This document shows, piece after piece, positions 6,952 through 53,712 of a stretch of DNA of 64,000 nucleotides. The position numbers and the translations under genes were made by a program. Below the pieces are notes generated by a model. That model was not told the origin of the DNA. It worked only from the letters and a program-made list of their open reading frames with translations, and did not search any database. This stretch comes from a virus (taxonomy: Duplodnaviria; Heunggongvirae; Uroviricota; Caudoviricetes): positions 16,405 through 80,404 of the IMG/VR virus record IMGVR_UViG_3300047567_000058. The stretch is one strand, 5' to 3'. Position 1 is the first letter of the stretch, and every line of letters begins with the position of its first letter.

Positions 6952-7581
6952 ATGAGATACAAATCAATCATAGCAGGGCTCTTCTACTCAAAAACTCCTA
7001 ACGATCGGACTACGTTTGCGTTCGATCCTTTTGACATGAGCGACGGCATCTGCGTCAATTCAAGATATGGATATGACTCAATCGATGGGGACAACGTCGA
7101 TATCAAGGACGTCGATGATCTGGTGGCAAACGGGGAGATAATCCCGGTCTCAAGAAAGCTGGATGCCCCGAGGCGAGTTCGCAAGCCTTGGTATTACATA
7201 ATAATAAATAAATCCTACATCGATGATGTCGAAGCGACGTTCATCATCACCAAGAAAGTTCATCACCACGGAGAATATGATTATGCCGTCGAAACGCTCC
7301 TGGTGTTCAAGCAAGTCAAGAAAAAATCAGATCATGCCAAGATCAGAGTGCTGTCTGGGACGTCAAAGAGCAATAATTCGCCGTCAAACGCGATTCATAT
7401 GTGCGGGACGTATATGCGATATGGCGACGTCGATGCCTATCAGAAAGCCAATGGAGACCCCGTTCAAGATCTGACGTACATCATCACTGAGCAGCTCAAA
7501 GAATTGGCTCCGGTTCTCCAAGGCAAGACGATAGACGTCAAATCAGCAATCGAGAGCGCAATGATGGATATGCGCGTATGA
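6952..7581 (+). CDS. hypothetical protein (209 aa)
   Basis: Internal ATG (M58 of the track ORF) after the upstream terminator. Contains one in-frame AT-rich element (IIINKSYI). Confidence 0.5.
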   Translation: MRYKSIIAGLFYSKTPNDRTTFAFDPFDMSDGICVNSRYGYDSIDGDNVDIKDVDDLVANGEIIPVSRKLDAPRRVRKPWYYIIINKSYIDDVEATFIITKKVHHHGEYDYAVETLLVFKQVKKKSDHAKIRVLSGTSKSNNSPSNAIHMCGTYMRYGDVDAYQKANGDPVQDLTYIITEQLKELAPVLQGKTIDVKSAIESAMMDMRV

Positions 7582-7597
7582 AAGAAAGGACTTGAAT

Positions 7598-8005
7598 ATG
7601 CCAAATGATTATTACGAAGATCCCAGATACGCGATCGTCGTGACTCAGATCGATGTCTATATCTTAAAAAGCATCGACGAGATAAACGCCAGACTGGACA
7701 ATCTAGAAGCCAATCTTTCGATGCTGTGCAATAGGGTGCAGAATGATTTCATAAAGATCACCGATGGCGGATACGTCCAAGACAAGGATTTCTTTGAGGA
7801 TGGGTCATTCAGAGACATATATCCCAACCAGGTTAATTACGTCGACGGGCATCCTACAAAAGCCATAGTTCAGACTGAGTATTCAAATCGCGTCAACGCA
7901 TATGGGCTTTCTTCATTGAAGGACATGACTTCTGATATTAGTAGCCTTAAATCGCAAGTTTACGGCATTCAATGCCTGATGGCTTCGCGGGAAACAAAAA
8001 AATAA
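7598..8005 (+). CDS. hypothetical protein (135 aa)
   Basis: ATG at 7598 preceded by gaaagga. Followed by a terminator. Confidence 0.5.
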   Translation: MPNDYYEDPRYAIVVTQIDVYILKSIDEINARLDNLEANLSMLCNRVQNDFIKITDGGYVQDKDFFEDGSFRDIYPNQVNYVDGHPTKAIVQTEYSNRVNAYGLSSLKDMTSDISSLKSQVYGIQCLMASRETKK

Positions 8006-8032
8006 AGCCAGACTAACTGTCTGGCTTTTTTA
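8006..8032 (+). terminator. intrinsic terminator (agccagactaactgtctggct followed by T6)
   Basis: Perfect 7-bp stem and T-run immediately after the stop codon. Confidence 0.7.
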
Positions 8033-8765
8033 GTGCCGTACGAGATACGATATCGAAACTCTGACCTGAGGCGCCTGCGGGGACTTGCACGCCGTTCTCA
8101 AGTTTGGAAATCTTGAATATTCCGTGTTGAGAGAGTTCCAAAAGCAAGTCCCAGGCGAGGCGCCTGAGGGAAGAAGCGAACATGCGCTTCAGGCATTTGA
8201 ACTGCTGAGAGCCTCAGCGATTTACTACGACACAGACTTAATTGTGTATCTCAAGCATGCTTTCACATGACAGCGTATCCCGATCGGGCCCGCGTGTGAA
8301 CTCCTCCACGAAACAGAAATAGTTGCTTGGCTATGTCTGTAGAGCGGGGAGTTCTTCGCGGGCCGGACGGGATATCGCTATTTGGTCTGAAGCTTATCTG
8401 TTGACGCCTGGGGATCCGGATATTTAACGAGGCGTCTGTGCCCGACGTCAAAGATCCGGATCGCATGGTCGTCATCAGATAGCGTAAGGCTTTAAGCGAT
8501 AGCTTATAGTACAACCGAGGATGCCCCGGTATTTTCCATGCTTGTGCAAAAGGCATACGATAATTGAAAGACAGATGCGTCCCAGTCCAGAGGCTGTTGT
8601 GTTTGAATCGGCGTTCGCTCCGTGCGCAAAACGCCGGTTCAAGCCGAAAGCTTCTGGATTTGGGAAAGCGTCATGTTTGAGAATCATATCGCGCAATCGC
8701 AGGAATCCTGCGCAAAACTATGCCTTATTATTTCTAGACGATGCGCCTTTAATAATTAGAAATGA

Positions 8766-8834
8766 ATCCTGATCATGAATTCAACCGTTTAGCCACAGCA
8801 TGTGACTTAACGGTCTGAAGCTCATGATCAGGAT
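8766..8834. repeat. long inverted repeat (13-bp perfect arms atcctgatcatga / tcatgatcaggat plus inner imperfect pairing) inside a region that lacks ORFs
   Basis: Read directly from the sequence; a roughly 69-nt hairpin. Confidence 0.6.
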
Positions 8835-51195: not shown

Positions 51196-51201
51196 CCGCG
51201 G

Positions 51202-53271
51202 TTAGTCTTTATCGACGGAAATTTTATTTATTTTCTTCTTGGCGCCTTTGAACGTCTCATCGAAGGATGCCTGAGACCATACCTGATGGCATTTCGGGTA
51301 GTTTGAGCATCCGTAGAAGTCCTGGCCGGTCTTGGCGGAATGGCGCTTGATGACGTCGCCTCCGCATTTAGGGCATTTGAACCCGGTCTTTTCCGGGGCT
51401 GGCTTCTTGTCGCTGGCGCTTGACGGGATGGGGTTGCCATTGGCATCCAGGCGCTCGGTGTACTTGCAGTGGCCTCTCATGTAGTTTGAGCAGGCTATGA
51501 ATCTGCCGTATCTGCCGTTGCGATAGACGAGATCGTGTCCGCACAGCGGGCATTTGCGGCCTTCGACTTTCTCGACGACGGGGCGGCCTTCGACCTCGAT
51601 GTCCTTGACGGCTTTGATCTCAGGATCGAACTTGCCGTAGAAATCCTTCAGCGTCGGGACGCGGGTGGCTTTGCCTCCGGCTATCTCGTCCAATTTGGAT
51701 TCCATCTCTGACGTGTATTCGAGGGAGATGATGTCTGAGAAATGATCGTCGAGGAATTTTGACAGAAGCAGACCCTTGTCTGTCGGCTTCATCGTTTTGC
51801 CTACCATCTCGGTGTATCCTCTGGCGGCGTCTTTGAGAACGCCGATGATCGTCGCGTATGTCGATGGGCGGCCAACGCCGGAATCCTCGAGGGCTTTGAC
51901 GAGCCCAGCTTCCGTGTATCTGGCTGGCGGGTTAGTCGATTTCTCGTCTAGCCGAAGCGGACCGTCTTTGACATGCTCATTCATCGACATGACCGGGAAC
52001 TTGGCGTCTTCCTCGTCCGGATCGGTGTAATTGTAGGCTTTGGCGAATCCGTCGAACTTGACAGAGTGCGCGATGAACGAGAATCTGTTGGCCCCGTTAT
52101 AGATCGAGGTTTCGAGATCCGTCATGATCTCATCGGCCATCAAAGCCGCCAGAGATCTGGAATAGATGAGCTTATAGACGTTGAATTGCTCCGAGTCCAA
52201 TTTGAGGGCCAGCGCTTCGGGGGTGTCTTCGATGTGCGTCGGGCGAATCGATTCATGCGCGTTCTGGGCATCCTTGTTCTGATCCTTCGGGATGCGGAGC
52301 CCGGTGTAGTATTGGCTCCCGAACTCGCCGACGATCTTGTTCTTGGCGGCTTCGATGAATTCGTCGGAGAATCTGACGGCGTCGGTTCTCATGTACGAAA
52401 TGAACCCTTGCTCATACAGCTTCTGGGCGATCTCCATGGCTTTCTTCGGAGTGTAGTTTAGCTTCGACGAGCAATCCTGCTGAAACGTGCTTGTCGTGAA
52501 CGGAAGCTTTGATTTGACGACTCTGTCAGAGCTTTCGATCTTTCCGACGTTGTAGTTGCCGGGCTTGCATTCGTTCATGACGGCGATCGCGTCGTCTCGG
52601 CTCTTGAACGTCGACATGCGCTTGGCGTCAGTTCCGCGGTATTTGGCTTCGTATATGACGCCATTCTTATCAAACGGGAGATACAGCTCGAAATATTGAA
52701 CGGGGACGAATGCCTTGATCTCATTCTCCCTGTCGCACAGGATCTTCAGTCCTGCCGATTGGACGCGGCCTGCCGATTTGCAGCATAGCTTGCGCTGAAC
52801 GACTCCGGACAGGCGGTATCCTATGATCTTGTCAAGGCTCATGCGCGTCATGGCGCTTTCGACCATGTTGTCGTCTATGACGCCTGGCTTCTTGACTGAT
52901 TCCTTGATGGCCGATTCGGTGATCTCGGTGAAAGTTATTCTCTTCGCTTTCTCATCGGGGATCTGAAGGAAGCGCTTAAGCGAATAGGAGATCATCTCCC
53001 CTTCGCGGTCGGCGTCGGATGCCAGATAGACGATGTCGGCGTTCTTGACGGCTGAGCGCAGGCTCTTGACGACTTCGGCTTTCTTAGGATCGACTTCAAG
53101 ATCCATCTCGAAGTCTTTGTCCACGTTGATGCCGAGGCTGTATTTTCCGCTGTCGGCGATCCTGGCGATATGCCCGATCGACGCCTGAACGTTGTAATTC
53201 GGCCCAAGGATCTGAGATATCTTGTGAACCTTGCCTGGAGACTCGACTAAGACTAAGTATTTCTTTGCCAT
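51202..53271 (-). CDS. topA: DNA topoisomerase I (type IA) with C-terminal zinc ribbons
   Basis: TOPRIM N-terminus (YLVLVESPGKVHKI, EGE, DxD). Catalytic region. C-terminal CPLCG...CSNY and CPKCGG...CSNYPKC. Confidence 0.85.
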   Translation of the reverse strand: MAKKYLVLVESPGKVHKISQILGPNYNVQASIGHIARIADSGKYSLGINVDKDFEMDLEVDPKKAEVVKSLRSAVKNADIVYLASDADREGEMISYSLKRFLQIPDEKAKRITFTEITESAIKESVKKPGVIDDNMVESAMTRMSLDKIIGYRLSGVVQRKLCCKSAGRVQSAGLKILCDRENEIKAFVPVQYFELYLPFDKNGVIYEAKYRGTDAKRMSTFKSRDDAIAVMNECKPGNYNVGKIESSDRVVKSKLPFTTSTFQQDCSSKLNYTPKKAMEIAQKLYEQGFISYMRTDAVRFSDEFIEAAKNKIVGEFGSQYYTGLRIPKDQNKDAQNAHESIRPTHIEDTPEALALKLDSEQFNVYKLIYSRSLAALMADEIMTDLETSIYNGANRFSFIAHSVKFDGFAKAYNYTDPDEEDAKFPVMSMNEHVKDGPLRLDEKSTNPPARYTEAGLVKALEDSGVGRPSTYATIIGVLKDAARGYTEMVGKTMKPTDKGLLLSKFLDDHFSDIISLEYTSEMESKLDEIAGGKATRVPTLKDFYGKFDPEIKAVKDIEVEGRPVVEKVEGRKCPLCGHDLVYRNGRYGRFIACSNYMRGHCKYTERLDANGNPIPSSASDKKPAPEKTGFKCPKCGGDVIKRHSAKTGQDFYGCSNYPKCHQVWSQASFDETFKGAKKKINKISVDKD

Positions 53272-53274
53272 GGC

Positions 53275-53517
53275 TTATTCGCCATCCTTCTTTGATGATT
53301 TATGATCTCCGGATTTCTTGCCTTCGCCGAGGTATCTTGCGACCTCGTCCATCGTGAAATAGTACCTTCCGTTGATGATGAGAGGATTAAGCAATCCCTC
53401 ATTGACGTGATTTCTGATCGTCTGGGAGGTCACGCCGATGATCCTGGCGAGATCCGATGCTTTGATGATCTTCGGTTTCTGAGAGTCTTTCTCGGGCTTC
53501 TTGACGCTATCGCTCAT
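53275..53517 (-). CDS. small HTH DNA-binding protein (MerR/excisionase-like), 80 aa
   Basis: ASDLARIIGVTSQTIRNHVNEGLL. Translationally coupled to topA. Preceded by a sigma70-like promoter (TTGCGT-17-TATATT) and the AT-rich element in the 5' UTR. Confidence 0.55.
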   Translation of the reverse strand: MSDSVKKPEKDSQKPKIIKASDLARIIGVTSQTIRNHVNEGLLNPLIINGRYYFTMDEVARYLGEGKKSGDHKSSKKDGE

Positions 53518-53712
53518 ATGAAATGTGCCTCGCTTCCTGGATAAAATATTTTATTTCCAGACTCTAATATAATGTATTATTGCCTAAAACGCAACTATTT
53601 ACTATAAAAGGCTTGAAAATGCAAAATATGCAAAGGCACCGGAAAGCCGGCTATAGGCCGGCTGTCTAGTGCTAAATGGGATGTGCCAAAAATCGACAAA
53701 AGCTTAAAAGTA

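Follow-up and report, generated by a model that had tools for sequence, protein, structure and literature searches.

Sharply bounded A/T islands at intervals of about 1.5 kb point to a selected DNA-level signal in a 50%-GC relative of AR9-type giant phages

Short segments made purely of A and T recur along the DNA of a distant AR9-like jumbo phage, and the question is what they are and what keeps them there. The window, that is, the whole stretch of 64,000 nucleotides analysed, has a GC content of 50.7%. The islands are 14–17 bp long, sharply bounded and found about every 1.5 kb (Table 1); their presence in a phage of 50% GC related to the AR9-type giants suggests that selection maintains a signal at the DNA level. 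The phage has an RNA polymerase of its own. It encodes a beta-like subunit that is split, gene 13323-14792 being RNA polymerase beta-like. The "rpoB-like" label given in an earlier note to the gene with the KEKIKNF peptide belongs to this neighbour, as no similarity to RNA polymerase is detectable in 11008-12177. AR9-type late promoter motifs (GAACAANNGATTAT) are present, together with AR9-early-like and sigma-70-like promoter motifs, all separate from the islands.

Table 1. A/T islands of the window, the strand on which each reads A-rich, and their surroundings.
Position	A-rich strand	Type	Context
344..360	+	island	hairpin (-9.6 kcal/mol) directly after; on - strand, terminator T-tail of convergent gene 391-969(-)
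1725..1740	+	island/leader	upstream of 1757 start codon; overlaps stop codon of 1048-1731; resembles AR9-early-like promoter (TAATATAAT-N6-G)
2084..2095	+	12-nt island	adjoins hairpin; terminator T-tail of convergent gene 2109-2648(-)
3101..3115	+	in-gene	P-type ATPase; mRNA A-rich (KEIKINS)
4632..4646	-	in-gene	P-type ATPase; rare T-rich-in-mRNA orientation; hydrophobic peptide LFYYF
6536..6550	-	intergenic	T-rich on + (sense) after small hairpin; GAACAACTGATTATG 13 nt downstream
7198..7213	+	in-gene	YIIINKS; lacks 5' GG
7996..8006	+	degenerate	GGGAAACAAAAAAATAAAG, then hairpin and T6 run; terminator
10375..10387	-	terminator-type	T-rich on +; GAACAATAGATTAT 22 nt downstream
11279..11294	+	in-gene	KEKIKNF; gene 11008-12177
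12813..12828	-	island	T-rich on +; stretch without confident gene call (ORF 12050-13039)
14824..14838	-	island	convergent junction; terminator T-tail after -15.9 kcal/mol hairpin, gene 13323-14792(+)
15873..15888	-	in-gene	PEIKNKIS; HNH/DUF7487 gene; exact midpoint of islands 14824 and 16921
16921..16933	+	island	terminator T-tail on sense (-) strand; GAACAAATGATTAT-ATG 18 nt downstream
17987..18001	-	in-gene	VENKIIS; L015 orthologue without island there
20128..20141	-	in-gene	RecJ-like gene, GKIKF; kept at orthologous L015 codons despite diverged flanks
21395..21407	+	island	terminator T-tail on sense (-) strand; -35-like TTGAAC 2 nt downstream
22959..22975	+	island	divergent intergenic region; CAACAATTGATTAT(+) 19 nt downstream
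24423..24437	-	in-gene	nrdD C-terminal part, LENKNIS
25893..25908	-	in-gene	ADKNKNIG; GCCGAT/ATCGGC arms; within segment 92.8% identical to L015
29785..29801	-	island	just upstream of nrdD start; sense strand A-rich; then hairpin
30073..30086	+	intergenic	sense strand T-rich (A4TAT8)
30753..30767	-	5'-leader	ATG 15 nt downstream; directly 5' of AGGAGG
32359..32373	-	in-gene	SPFH gene, GNKKYF
34535..34550	-	island	covers ClpP stop codon; then -20.7 kcal/mol hairpin, no sense-direction T-run after
38025..38035	-	short leader (11 nt)	ATG 19 nt downstream
41594..41609	-	island	covers stop codon of 41601-43169
44426..44440	-	island	codons 2-6 of gene 44130-44444 (MENKNNS)
47093..47106	-	in-gene	GKIKKS
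47907..47918	+	island	terminator T-tail on sense (-) strand; GAACAATTGATT-ATG 21 nt downstream
48853..48867	+	island	terminator T-tail; GGGG...CCCC flanks; sense-direction hairpin upstream
51219..51234	-	in-gene	topoisomerase IA C-terminus, KKINKIS; midway 48853/53541
53541..53556	-	leader	HTH_17 gene; starts at about +1 of AR9-early-like promoter; most palindromic copy
54978..54993	-	leader	ends 2 nt before ATG; kept at orthologous L008 junction (14022)
56466..56481	+	island	terminator T-tail on sense (-) strand; kept in L008 (12536)
59008..59022	+	island	terminator T-tail on sense (-) strand; TTGACA-17-TAGAAT (DNA polymerase B promoter) 12 nt downstream
63031..63045	+	island	terminator T-tail on sense (-) strand; kept in L008 (4490)

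The window contains 27 runs of 15 nt or more made purely of A and T, against 0.54 ± 0.74 in 200 dinucleotide-preserving shuffles, and GG-W(12-18)-CC occurs 16 times against 0.09 in the shuffle control. The observation in the earlier note holds, and more strongly than it was put there. An element is found at all 18 positions that it listed, two of them weaker (38023, an A/T run of only 11 nt, and 7195, without the 5' GG), and its "at least 18 copies" is borne out, the list having omitted 1725, 3101, 4632, 51219 and 54978. The copies that it placed over stop codons (34535, 41594) are indeed there. The lengths of A/T runs have two peaks, the second at 15-16 nt, and the 14–17 range resembles a soft threshold more than half-sites set at a fixed distance. 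On the A-rich strand of runs of at least 12 nt, G occupies position -1 in 35/36 and position -2 in 28/36, AAA follows the 5' G, and C dominates immediately 3' of the run. The consensus is GG-AAA(A)TAAAAA(A)T..-(T)CC, whose GGAAA(A)TAAAAA end is the most conserved part. The GGAAAT/ATTTCC arms first described are only partly symmetric: by our reading of the copy list, about 24/34 non-terminator copies end in TCC and about 15/34 in TTCC, and beyond GG/CC the flanks show marginal complementarity (P about 0.04). Setting apart a "terminator class" was a mistake, since these copies share the same GGAAA end; terminator tails in the relatives L012 and L013 lack the CC. All copies, terminator-class ones included, form one strand-asymmetric family of A/T-only islands.

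Inside genes the islands are made by codon choice. Coding sequence holds 14 islands, compared with 0.57 ± 0.69 after synonymous shuffling, and 153 peptide runs are able to encode an island, of which only these 14 do. In orthologue alignments the same peptide is written with A/T-ending codons where an island is present and with G/C-ending codons where it is absent; at one topoisomerase site the window reads AAG AAC AAG ATC without an island, whereas L008 reads GAA AAT AAA ATA AAA with one. The partial GGAA/TTCC symmetry and the dispersed copies would fit either a small mobile palindrome that inserts in frame or islands that are by-products of base composition and of peptides rich in Lys and Asn. 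The by-product version conflicts with the peptide-run count and with the synonymous and dinucleotide shuffles, which give 0.5-0.6 copies against 14-27 observed. The peptides quoted in the earlier note are correct (LENKNIS, ADKNKNIG, GKIKF, VENKIIS, PEIKNKIS, GNKKYF, GKIKK, KEKIKNF, MENKNN), and its suggestion that they might be insertions, tolerated in frame, is refuted: no indels are found at the six in-gene sites compared with orthologues. The sole nearby indel, 3 codons beside the nrdD island 24423, is missing from the window and not inserted there. As far as these tests reach, the whole explanation is refuted and hardly credible. The aligned sequences show islands arising and vanishing in place, through substitutions and the choice among synonymous codons.

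The same islands occur in a sister phage of 59% GC, with 10-11 A/T runs of 14-17 nt per 15-17 kb; runs of 11-13 nt are absent from L015 and represented by one 11-nt run in L008. Intergenic copies and the RecJ copy lie at orthologous positions. GC enrichment alone does not force islands, because L012 and L013, more distant relatives of 50-54% GC with the same gene set, have none in their genes.

The islands are also evenly spaced. Intervals are roughly 1.3-1.5 kb, with a coefficient of variation of 0.33-0.64 against about 0.9 under random placement. When intergenic copies are held fixed and in-gene copies placed at random, the observed evenness has P = 0.0008 in the window, 0.006 in L008 and 0.001 in L015; where the intergenic copies leave gaps, in-gene copies occupy them. 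The evenness belongs to the union of both orientations, rather than to each strand alone, and because the two count jointly, the primary function would act on double-stranded DNA and not on one RNA.

A spacing-dependent site at the DNA level is the reading favoured here, and it is held tentatively, at somewhat less than even confidence. Each island would be a short, sharply GC-clamped segment, easily opened and with a narrow minor groove, which some DNA-handling activity of the phage may need, regularly spaced, as a place to nucleate or enter. An architectural protein or one that binds AT tracts is one candidate user; another is an enzyme requiring locally melted DNA, such as the type IA topoisomerase, which is conserved across the phage family. 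Of the binding site for a dimeric DNA- or RNA-binding protein proposed in the earlier note, a site at the DNA level is the favoured form, a strict dimer operator being unlikely because the core is degenerate and A/T-only, the length varies over 14–17 and one end alone is strongly conserved. Several observations count against the favoured reading: the absence of in-gene islands from L012 and L013, island-free gaps of 3.5-4 kb (e.g., across the ClpB and DNA polymerase B genes), and looser spacing of about 2.2 kb in the structural-gene region left of the window. Moreover, if melting were all that mattered, TA-rich sequence with G/C clamps of any kind would be favoured, whereas the islands are A-tract-rich even in non-coding leaders and their 5' G and 3' C are strand-specific.

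Orientation would be set by context. At gene ends the island is shown to double as the T-tract of a hairpin terminator, and inside transcription units the mRNA almost always carries the A-rich reading, probably because a U-rich tract in mRNA and runs of Phe/Ile/Leu/Tyr in protein are both costly. The sense strand is A-rich in 24/26 in-gene and 12/12 leader copies by our tally; of these, the orientation test covered 21/23 in-gene (P = 0.007) and 10/10 leader copies. The A-rich mRNA core described earlier holds for nearly all copies inside transcription units, 4632 and 12813 being T-rich on the local gene strand, and the peptides are mostly but not "always" Lys/Asn/Ile-rich, 4632 being read as LFYYF. 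The leader copies are free of coding constraint, and their uniform orientation, which also counts against the favoured reading, speaks for at least some contribution at the level of transcription or RNA. The main rival, into which the pause signal of the earlier note develops, is a directional transcription stop whose active form is the T-rich reading (U5-8-A-U3-6-CC in RNA). Behind a hairpin it would end sense transcripts, and in genes and leaders it would stop or pause antisense transcripts made by phage RNA polymerases from late promoters, whose consensus is so short that it can arise by chance. Antisense transcripts from late promoters occur in AR9 (PMC5312081), and jumbo-phage RNA polymerases lack the beta' rudder, which stabilises elongation complexes (PMC9209446). 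Besides the orientation bias, T-rich-in-sense copies are nearly confined to sites behind hairpins (mean -13.3 vs -7.8 kcal/mol), in-gene copies read backwards show the layout of bona fide terminator tails (T-run, single A, T-run, CC), and island 34535 with its strong hairpin would be a canonical terminator for antisense transcripts only. However, most in-gene copies have no adjacent hairpin and a flank energy equal to background (z = -0.14; P = 0.91), and since sense terminators all keep theirs, a U-tract alone may not be enough to terminate. Nor is the antisense strand short of AACA-N6-TR (14 observed vs 10.8 expected), and the joint even spacing of opposite-orientation copies is left unexplained. 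This stop is considered unlikely, if by no means negligible.

It is rather improbable that the islands act as A-rich RNA, either as an unstructured ribosome-loading or enhancer segment in leaders or as a site for an RNA-binding protein or endoribonuclease setting mRNA lifetime. In leaders, about 12 copies precede the ATG by 0-35 nt, four of them abutting it without normal Shine-Dalgarno spacing, and the sense strand is A-rich throughout transcription units; yet U-rich terminator tails would be a different RNA, with the same flanks, and count in the spacing, consistent in-frame start codons were not seen after in-gene copies on our inspection of the codon alignments, and no Rfam family was matched. 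More doubtful still are lagging-strand priming sites, at which the T-rich strand (3'-CC-TTTT...) would serve as template for a primase that starts on pyrimidine tracts, with the conserved GGAAAAUAAAAA as primer 5' end and the 1.4 kb spacing as Okazaki-fragment length. Even spacing at that scale, the strong conservation of the GGAAA(A)TAAAAA end and the nearby RNase H, FEN-like and DNA polymerase B genes agree with this, but T-rich copies lie on both strands in each gene arm, the evenness belongs to the union, and a primase was not identified here. Known primases require no more than about 3 nt of recognition sequence. Promoters for a phage RNA polymerase, of an early or middle class, are very unlikely. 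The encoded split beta-like subunit and the extended AT-rich early promoters of jumbo-phage virion RNA polymerases (PMC7598289) speak for them. Against them, the AR9-type and sigma-70-like motifs already present make the islands probably not promoters, the islands are degenerate whereas known virion-polymerase promoters are highly conserved, and no conserved base or start-site base was seen at a fixed distance downstream on our inspection of the copy list. In addition, the four islands abutting an ATG leave no room for a start site, and about 13 copies lie deep inside genes.

On the favoured reading of a spacing-dependent DNA-level site, the islands may reflect the history of the family. The phage family is mostly 24-35% GC, and in such an ancestral genome these sites would have been everywhere, while a GC-enriched clade would have to maintain them as discrete islands, written into protein-coding genes by codon choice wherever intergenic space is not free.

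Pure A/T runs in the window have a bimodal length distribution, with three to five runs at each length from 10 to 14 nt and a rise to 12 runs each at 15 and 16 nt. In all, 27 runs reach 15 nt or more, where 200 dinucleotide-preserving shuffles of the window give 0.54 +/- 0.74, and the pattern GG-W(12-18)-CC occurs 16 times against 0.09 expected. These sharply bounded runs are here called islands and are named by their start coordinate. When runs of at least 12 nt are read on the A-rich strand, G occupies position -1 in 35/36 and position -2 in 28/36, the first three bases are A in 34-36 of the 36, and C predominates just 3′ of the run. 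The consensus, GG-AAA(A)TAAAAA(A)T..(T)CC, is far better conserved in its 5′ half than in its 3′ half, and an extended stem or cruciform with covarying flanks is only marginally indicated (P ~0.04). The earlier note had listed 18 copies of an element and judged them far above chance; the enrichment is confirmed, every listed position is an A/T-only stretch with G/C flanks, and its coordinates and quoted peptides are right, but islands 1725, 3101, 4632, 51219 and 54978 had been overlooked. The terminator copies, which had been set apart as a separate class, carry the same GGAAA(A)TAAAAA end, and all copies, terminator tails included, thus form one family.

About 13 copies are terminator tails, T-rich in the mRNA sense and immediately following a GC-rich hairpin where a gene ends; this subset is ordinary. 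The flanks of the 12 scored T-rich-in-sense copies have a mean energy of -13.3 kcal/mol, as expected of intrinsic terminators, whereas the 20 A-rich-in-sense copies have no hidden hairpin above background (-7.8 vs -7.3 kcal/mol, P = 0.91); for the flanks of in-gene islands a comparison with background gives z = -0.14. About 13 copies lie within ORFs of the window, 12 of them A-rich in the mRNA, and the clear T-rich exception, 4632, encodes the hydrophobic LFYYF within the P-type ATPase. About five others, all A-rich in sense, occupy 5′ leaders at 0-23 nt upstream of ATG. Neither ORFs nor leaders are the place of an intrinsic terminator, which is expected where a transcription unit ends, 3′ of a stop codon. 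Stop codons are covered by islands 34535 and 41594, and a divergent spacer holds 22959. Island 34535, at the end of the ClpP gene, is accompanied by a strong hairpin and could terminate only antisense RNA; its sequence, AAATAAATAAATAAAT, provides TAA stops in all three frames.

The in-gene islands were written in place. Compared with orthologues of a 59%-GC sister phage (loci L008, L015 and L016), length does not change at the sites in SMC, topoisomerase, RecJ, the FEN-like protein and the 781/855-aa protein, and the sole indel, at an nrdD site, consists of three flanking codons missing from the window. No insertion is seen in the RecJ island region against 14 more distant homologues either, which have xxI[H/K]FSGRS where the window has GKIKFSGRS. 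The clearest case is the topoisomerase, in which the window encodes KNKI as AAG AAC AAG ATC, without an island, and L008 encodes ENKIK as GAA AAT AAA ATA AAA, with one. Among the coding sequences of the window, 14 A/T runs of at least 14 nt are observed, against 0.57 +/- 0.69 (maximum 3) when synonymous codons are permuted across all genes in 300 trials; peptide runs able to encode an island number 153. It follows that the islands are a feature of the DNA or RNA level, produced by substitutions and codon choice, and the nucleotide-level selection acting on them is strong. The small palindromic element inserted in frame, as the earlier note had proposed, is refuted by the orthologue alignment of the Lys/Asn/Ile pentapeptides that it had called for, which reveals no insertion in the window. 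Orthologues with the peptides and without the DNA motif had been regarded as evidence against the element; similar residues do occur in this way, and it is this that shows selection on nucleotides. A MITE/REP-like mobile element was rejected on its absence as an insertion relative to orthologous sequence, and a peptide or composition artefact on the dinucleotide and synonymous shuffles. Mobile-element and chance explanations are effectively excluded.

The islands obey an orientation rule. By our own tally over the window, L008, L015 and the extra region of locus L034, 24/26 in-gene copies are A-rich in sense, whereas the peptide repertoire alone predicts an A- to T-rich ratio of ~2:1 (P = 0.007 for 21/23, before L034 was added). 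Leader copies, which are free of coding constraint, are A-rich in sense in 12/12 (P = 0.001 for the 10/10 tested, two having been added later). T-rich-in-sense copies are found essentially only behind hairpins, and terminator tails are inverted relative to in-gene and leader copies. Within transcription units the U-rich reading is therefore avoided, or the A-rich one favored.

Spacing between islands is also even, with a median gap of 1.3-1.5 kb and a coefficient of variation of 0.33-0.64 against ~0.9 for random placement (P from <0.0002 to 0.05, by locus and island definition), and 15873 lies 1049 and 1048 bp from its two neighbors. When intergenic copies were held fixed and in-gene copies placed randomly in coding sequence, placements as even as the observed one made up only 0.08% of trials (window), 0.56% (L008) and 0.14% (L015). 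In-gene copies thus fill gaps, and copies of both orientations act together as one evenly spaced set. A 3.9-kb gap occurs in the intein-bearing part of nrdD, which is likely a recent insertion. In the structural-gene region left of the window, spacing is looser (~2.2 kb) and only A-rich-in-sense copies are present.

The sister phage shares 69% identity in DNA polymerase B and 53% in RecJ. Its loci carry 10-11 A/T runs of 14-17 nt in 15-17 kb, with the same GG...CC flanks; runs of 11-13 nt are absent from L015 and represented by one of 11 nt in L008. Intergenic copies are conserved in position between the two phages at four junctions, namely SMC/781-aa gene, HD/DNA polymerase B, 130-aa/477-aa gene and 477-aa/203-aa gene. 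The in-gene island of RecJ has likewise been kept, despite synonymous-site divergence in its flanks, and other in-gene copies are present in one phage only (17987 in the window; 2619, 6456 and 16612 in L008). Two nrdD copies are common to both phages, but they lie in a ~2-kb segment with 92.8% DNA identity, far above the genome average, which indicates recent exchange between two phages that co-occur in the same samples. Because of this exchange, nrdD conservation is not counted as independent evidence, and its use as a sign of purifying selection is withdrawn. In two more distant relatives, L012 (54% GC) and L013 (50% GC), both ~49% identical in DNA polymerase B, A/T runs are confined to promoter-like and terminator regions, and the terminator tails are without the final CC. 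The remaining family has 24-45% GC, and islands are inseparable from background there. Islands are confined to the clade of the window phage and its sister, where they turn over by point changes with some positional conservation.

The phage itself looks lytic and AR9-like. Its window has 50.7% GC, strong AGGAGG ribosome-binding sites, and genes on the + strand to ~14.8 kb and on the - strand beyond. The products include an NrdD interrupted by inteins and an HNH endonuclease, a RecJ-like exonuclease, ClpB- and ClpP-like proteins, a P-type ATPase, topoisomerase IA, RNase H, a family B DNA polymerase, and SMC/SbcC-like proteins. By DNA polymerase, the closest cultured phages (~27% identity) are AR9/PBS1, the Staphylococcus S6/MarsHill group, and Yersinia phiR1-37, all jumbo phages with two multisubunit RNA polymerases (PMC7598289). 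A 489-aa product is homologous to the C-terminal half of RNA polymerase beta, matching E. coli beta residues 650-825 (E = 2e-9) and chain 7s00_C of the AR9 non-virion RNA polymerase (E = 9e-4). From this homology, the phage has a split multisubunit RNA polymerase of the jumbo-phage type. In the stretch upstream, confident genes are few, and the other beta fragment, introns, or both may lie there; the gene in this stretch that encodes KEKIKNF has no RNA polymerase similarity in Pfam and PDB searches. Several metagenomes contain near-identical contigs, the longest of 219 kb, and the islands are therefore not assembly artefacts. The sole blastn match in GenBank, MT835493.1, was set aside as an unrelated 41%-GC phage without islands that has only nrdD in common. 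An IMG/VR scan with the RecJ-like protein as query found nothing, and a metagenome scan with a DNA polymerase B alignment found only AT-rich relatives (24-45% GC), in which islands are indistinguishable. No tRNA genes were found in the window, and no Rfam match reached the gathering score.

Some of the cargo is unusual for a phage, including a P-type cation ATPase, an SPFH/Band 7 protein, and adjacent ClpP- and ClpB-like genes. Two DUF7487/REase-like genes, one with an island, probably both encode homing endonucleases. The nrdD gene is fragmented into several ORFs, among which are intein splicing domains and an HNH/NUMOD3 endonuclease, and a 50%-GC relative has a reverse transcriptase gene at its contig edge.

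Positions of genes, segments and motifs in the window and in related loci
Feature	Position	Strand	Remark
P-type (E1-E2) cation ATPase	2746-5277	+	
Stretch upstream of the beta-like gene	8.0-13.3 kb		
Gene encoding KEKIKNF	11008-12177		
RNA polymerase beta-like gene	13323-14792	+	
DUF7487/REase-like gene	15368-16330	-	
DUF7487/REase-like gene	43267-44070	-	
nrdD	24151-29713	-	
nrdD segment shared with sister phage	24183-26176		L015 6-2010
SPFH/Band 7 protein	31332-32639	-	
Island 34535	34535-34550	-	ClpP gene end
ClpP- and ClpB-like genes	34545-37525	-	
Topoisomerase IA gene	51202-53271		
HTH_17 gene (80 aa)	53275-53517		
GAACAANNGATTAT	6564-6577	+	
GAACAANNGATTAT	10410-10423	+	
GAACAANNGATTAT	22995-23008	+	
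GAACAANNGATTAT	16889-16902	-	
GAACAANNGATTAT	47872-47885	-	
GAACAANNGATTAT	56496-56509	-	
GAACAANNGATTAT	60628-60641	-	
AATAAT(G/A)(T/C)ATTATATTA-N6-G, upstream of HTH_17 gene	53560-53585	-	L008 15377-15393
Near-consensus sigma-70 promoters (DNA polymerase B, HD-domain gene, RecJ-like gene)	58967-58995; 60143-60171	-; -	L015 3150-3185
Reverse transcriptase (RVT_1) gene	L013 1-94		

Several other promoter-like motifs were found. The motif GAACAANNGATTAT has seven copies in the window against 0.37 expected, always sense-oriented and at gene starts, with three more in L008 and one in L034; in two to three copies ATG starts inside or right after it. It fits the late promoter of the AR9 non-virion RNA polymerase, AACA-N6-TA/G, in which AACA lies at -11 to -8 and TA/G at -1/+1, the last base being the transcription start (PMC5312081, PMC7598289). 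This resemblance implies that late mRNAs are leaderless, and it suggests that the virion DNA may contain dU. An island precedes five of the seven copies by 13-22 nt (it is T-rich on the motif strand in four cases and A-rich in one), and the late-promoter pattern is absent from the islands themselves. The window and L008 share a conserved motif, TATTATATTA-N6-G, upstream of the gene for an 80-aa HTH_17 protein, which is encoded beside the most palindromic island copy; the motif is similar to the AR9 early promoter, AAATATATATTAT-N6-G, and relatives L012-L014 have motifs ATATATTAT-N6-G. Strong sigma-70-like promoters are also present, as TTGACA-17-TAGAAT (DNA polymerase B), TTGACA-17-TAATAT and TTGACC-17-TATAAT, and some genes may be transcribed by the host RNA polymerase, unlike in phiKZ or AR9.

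The earlier note had offered a phage-specific promoter as one function of the element. A promoter role is unlikely, because these other promoter classes are present, four leader copies abut ATG, and no base is fixed downstream: inspection found none conserved at a set distance from the islands, with a purine at +7 in only 19/34. The early promoters of AR9/phiKZ-type virion RNA polymerases are likewise extended A/T-only motifs of phages with their own multisubunit polymerases, but they are highly conserved, lie upstream of early operons and fix the start 6 nt downstream, whereas islands have a degenerate core and are often intragenic. Three T-rich intergenic islands (21395, 59008 and L015 3128) end 2-14 nt upstream of -35-like hexamers, which fits the position of the A/T-rich block of a sigma-70 UP element (~-40 to -60); for most islands no promoter was found downstream.

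The primary role of the islands is tentatively placed at a spacing-dependent site on duplex DNA, the simplest location given that both orientations contribute to the spacing. Some DNA-handling activity of the phage would require, at intervals, a short stretch of A/T only, clamped by GC, at which it could nucleate or enter or which would open locally. Where genes end, the island would be merged with the terminator T-tract, and elsewhere it would be turned so that U-tracts and hydrophobic codons are avoided. The main rival, to which we give less weight, regards the T-rich reading as a directional stop, with in-gene copies halting antisense transcription by phage polymerases. In its favor, in-gene copies share the tail layout of terminators, the orientation rule agrees, and the strong hairpin and island of 34535 together can act only on antisense RNA; against it, most in-gene copies are without a hairpin. 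The phage polymerases are without the beta′ rudder (PMC9209446), AR9 makes antisense RNAs, and the late promoter is short enough to fire by chance; however, antisense promoter-like words are not depleted, no selection against chance late promoters on the antisense strand being seen, and the joint spacing of both orientations also speaks against directional stops. RNA-level roles, priming sites and promoters are less likely.

The islands are most closely comparable to terminator U-tracts, to the stoperators of mycobacteriophages, and to genomic words with regular spacing requirements such as Chi. Like intrinsic or bidirectional terminators, ~13 window copies stand behind GC-rich hairpins, and in-gene copies present the same T-run/A/T-run on the other strand; unlike them, ~24 copies are in ORFs or leaders without a hairpin above background, and island tails are unusually long, with 12-17 nt of pure A/T, a clade-specific final CC and even spacing. 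The stoperators of cluster A mycobacteriophages consist of a well-conserved 13-mer bound by a known repressor (gp71 in L5) in a temperate phage. They too are dozens of short, asymmetric, genome-dispersed sites that partly overlap gene ends. Stoperators lie mostly in one orientation relative to transcription, as in-gene and leader islands do, while terminator-tail islands are turned the other way. The islands, moreover, conserve only GGAAA and a core that is merely A/T, many lie deep in genes, and their phage looks lytic and AR9-like. Chi and KOPS words, as well as sites of stress-induced duplex destabilisation, resemble islands in being genome-wide, selected and within coding sequence, with density outweighing exact position. 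Chi and KOPS are, however, specific 8-mers whose strand polarity is tied to replication, whereas what defines an island is its composition and length, and either orientation contributes to the spacing. We know of no described equivalent of codon-encoded, evenly spaced A/T islands, and the literature consulted on jumbo-phage promoters and non-virion RNA polymerase termination, which was not aimed at islands, contained nothing comparable. What sets the islands apart is that they are A/T-only segments placed by codon choice in ~13 unrelated genes, and in several leaders, at even spacing, in an uncultured high-GC AR9-like branch.

It is possible, although we hold it with some doubt, that AR9-like jumbo phages whose genomes have drifted towards high GC keep a genome-wide A/T-island "ruler" every ~1.4 kb, through codon choice, for an undescribed spacing-dependent process. 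Its marks could be places where a phage factor for DNA coating, topology or replication nucleates or enters, or alternatively hairpin-independent, direction-specific stops for rudder-less phage RNA polymerases. Termination by jumbo-phage multisubunit RNA polymerases is not yet characterised (PMC9209446), and the islands, short and mutable, offer concrete starting points for work on termination, DNA topology or replication in phages with their own multisubunit polymerases. If the proposal is true, annotators should be warned that the Lys/Asn/Ile pentapeptides of these proteins are by-products of DNA-level selection. The islands would then be a clear natural case of a non-coding signal laid over many unrelated genes purely by synonymous or conservative codon choice, with a spacing rule, and they would expose a requirement of AR9/PBS1-type phages that is invisible in the AT-rich cultured members because the signal is hidden in their background composition.
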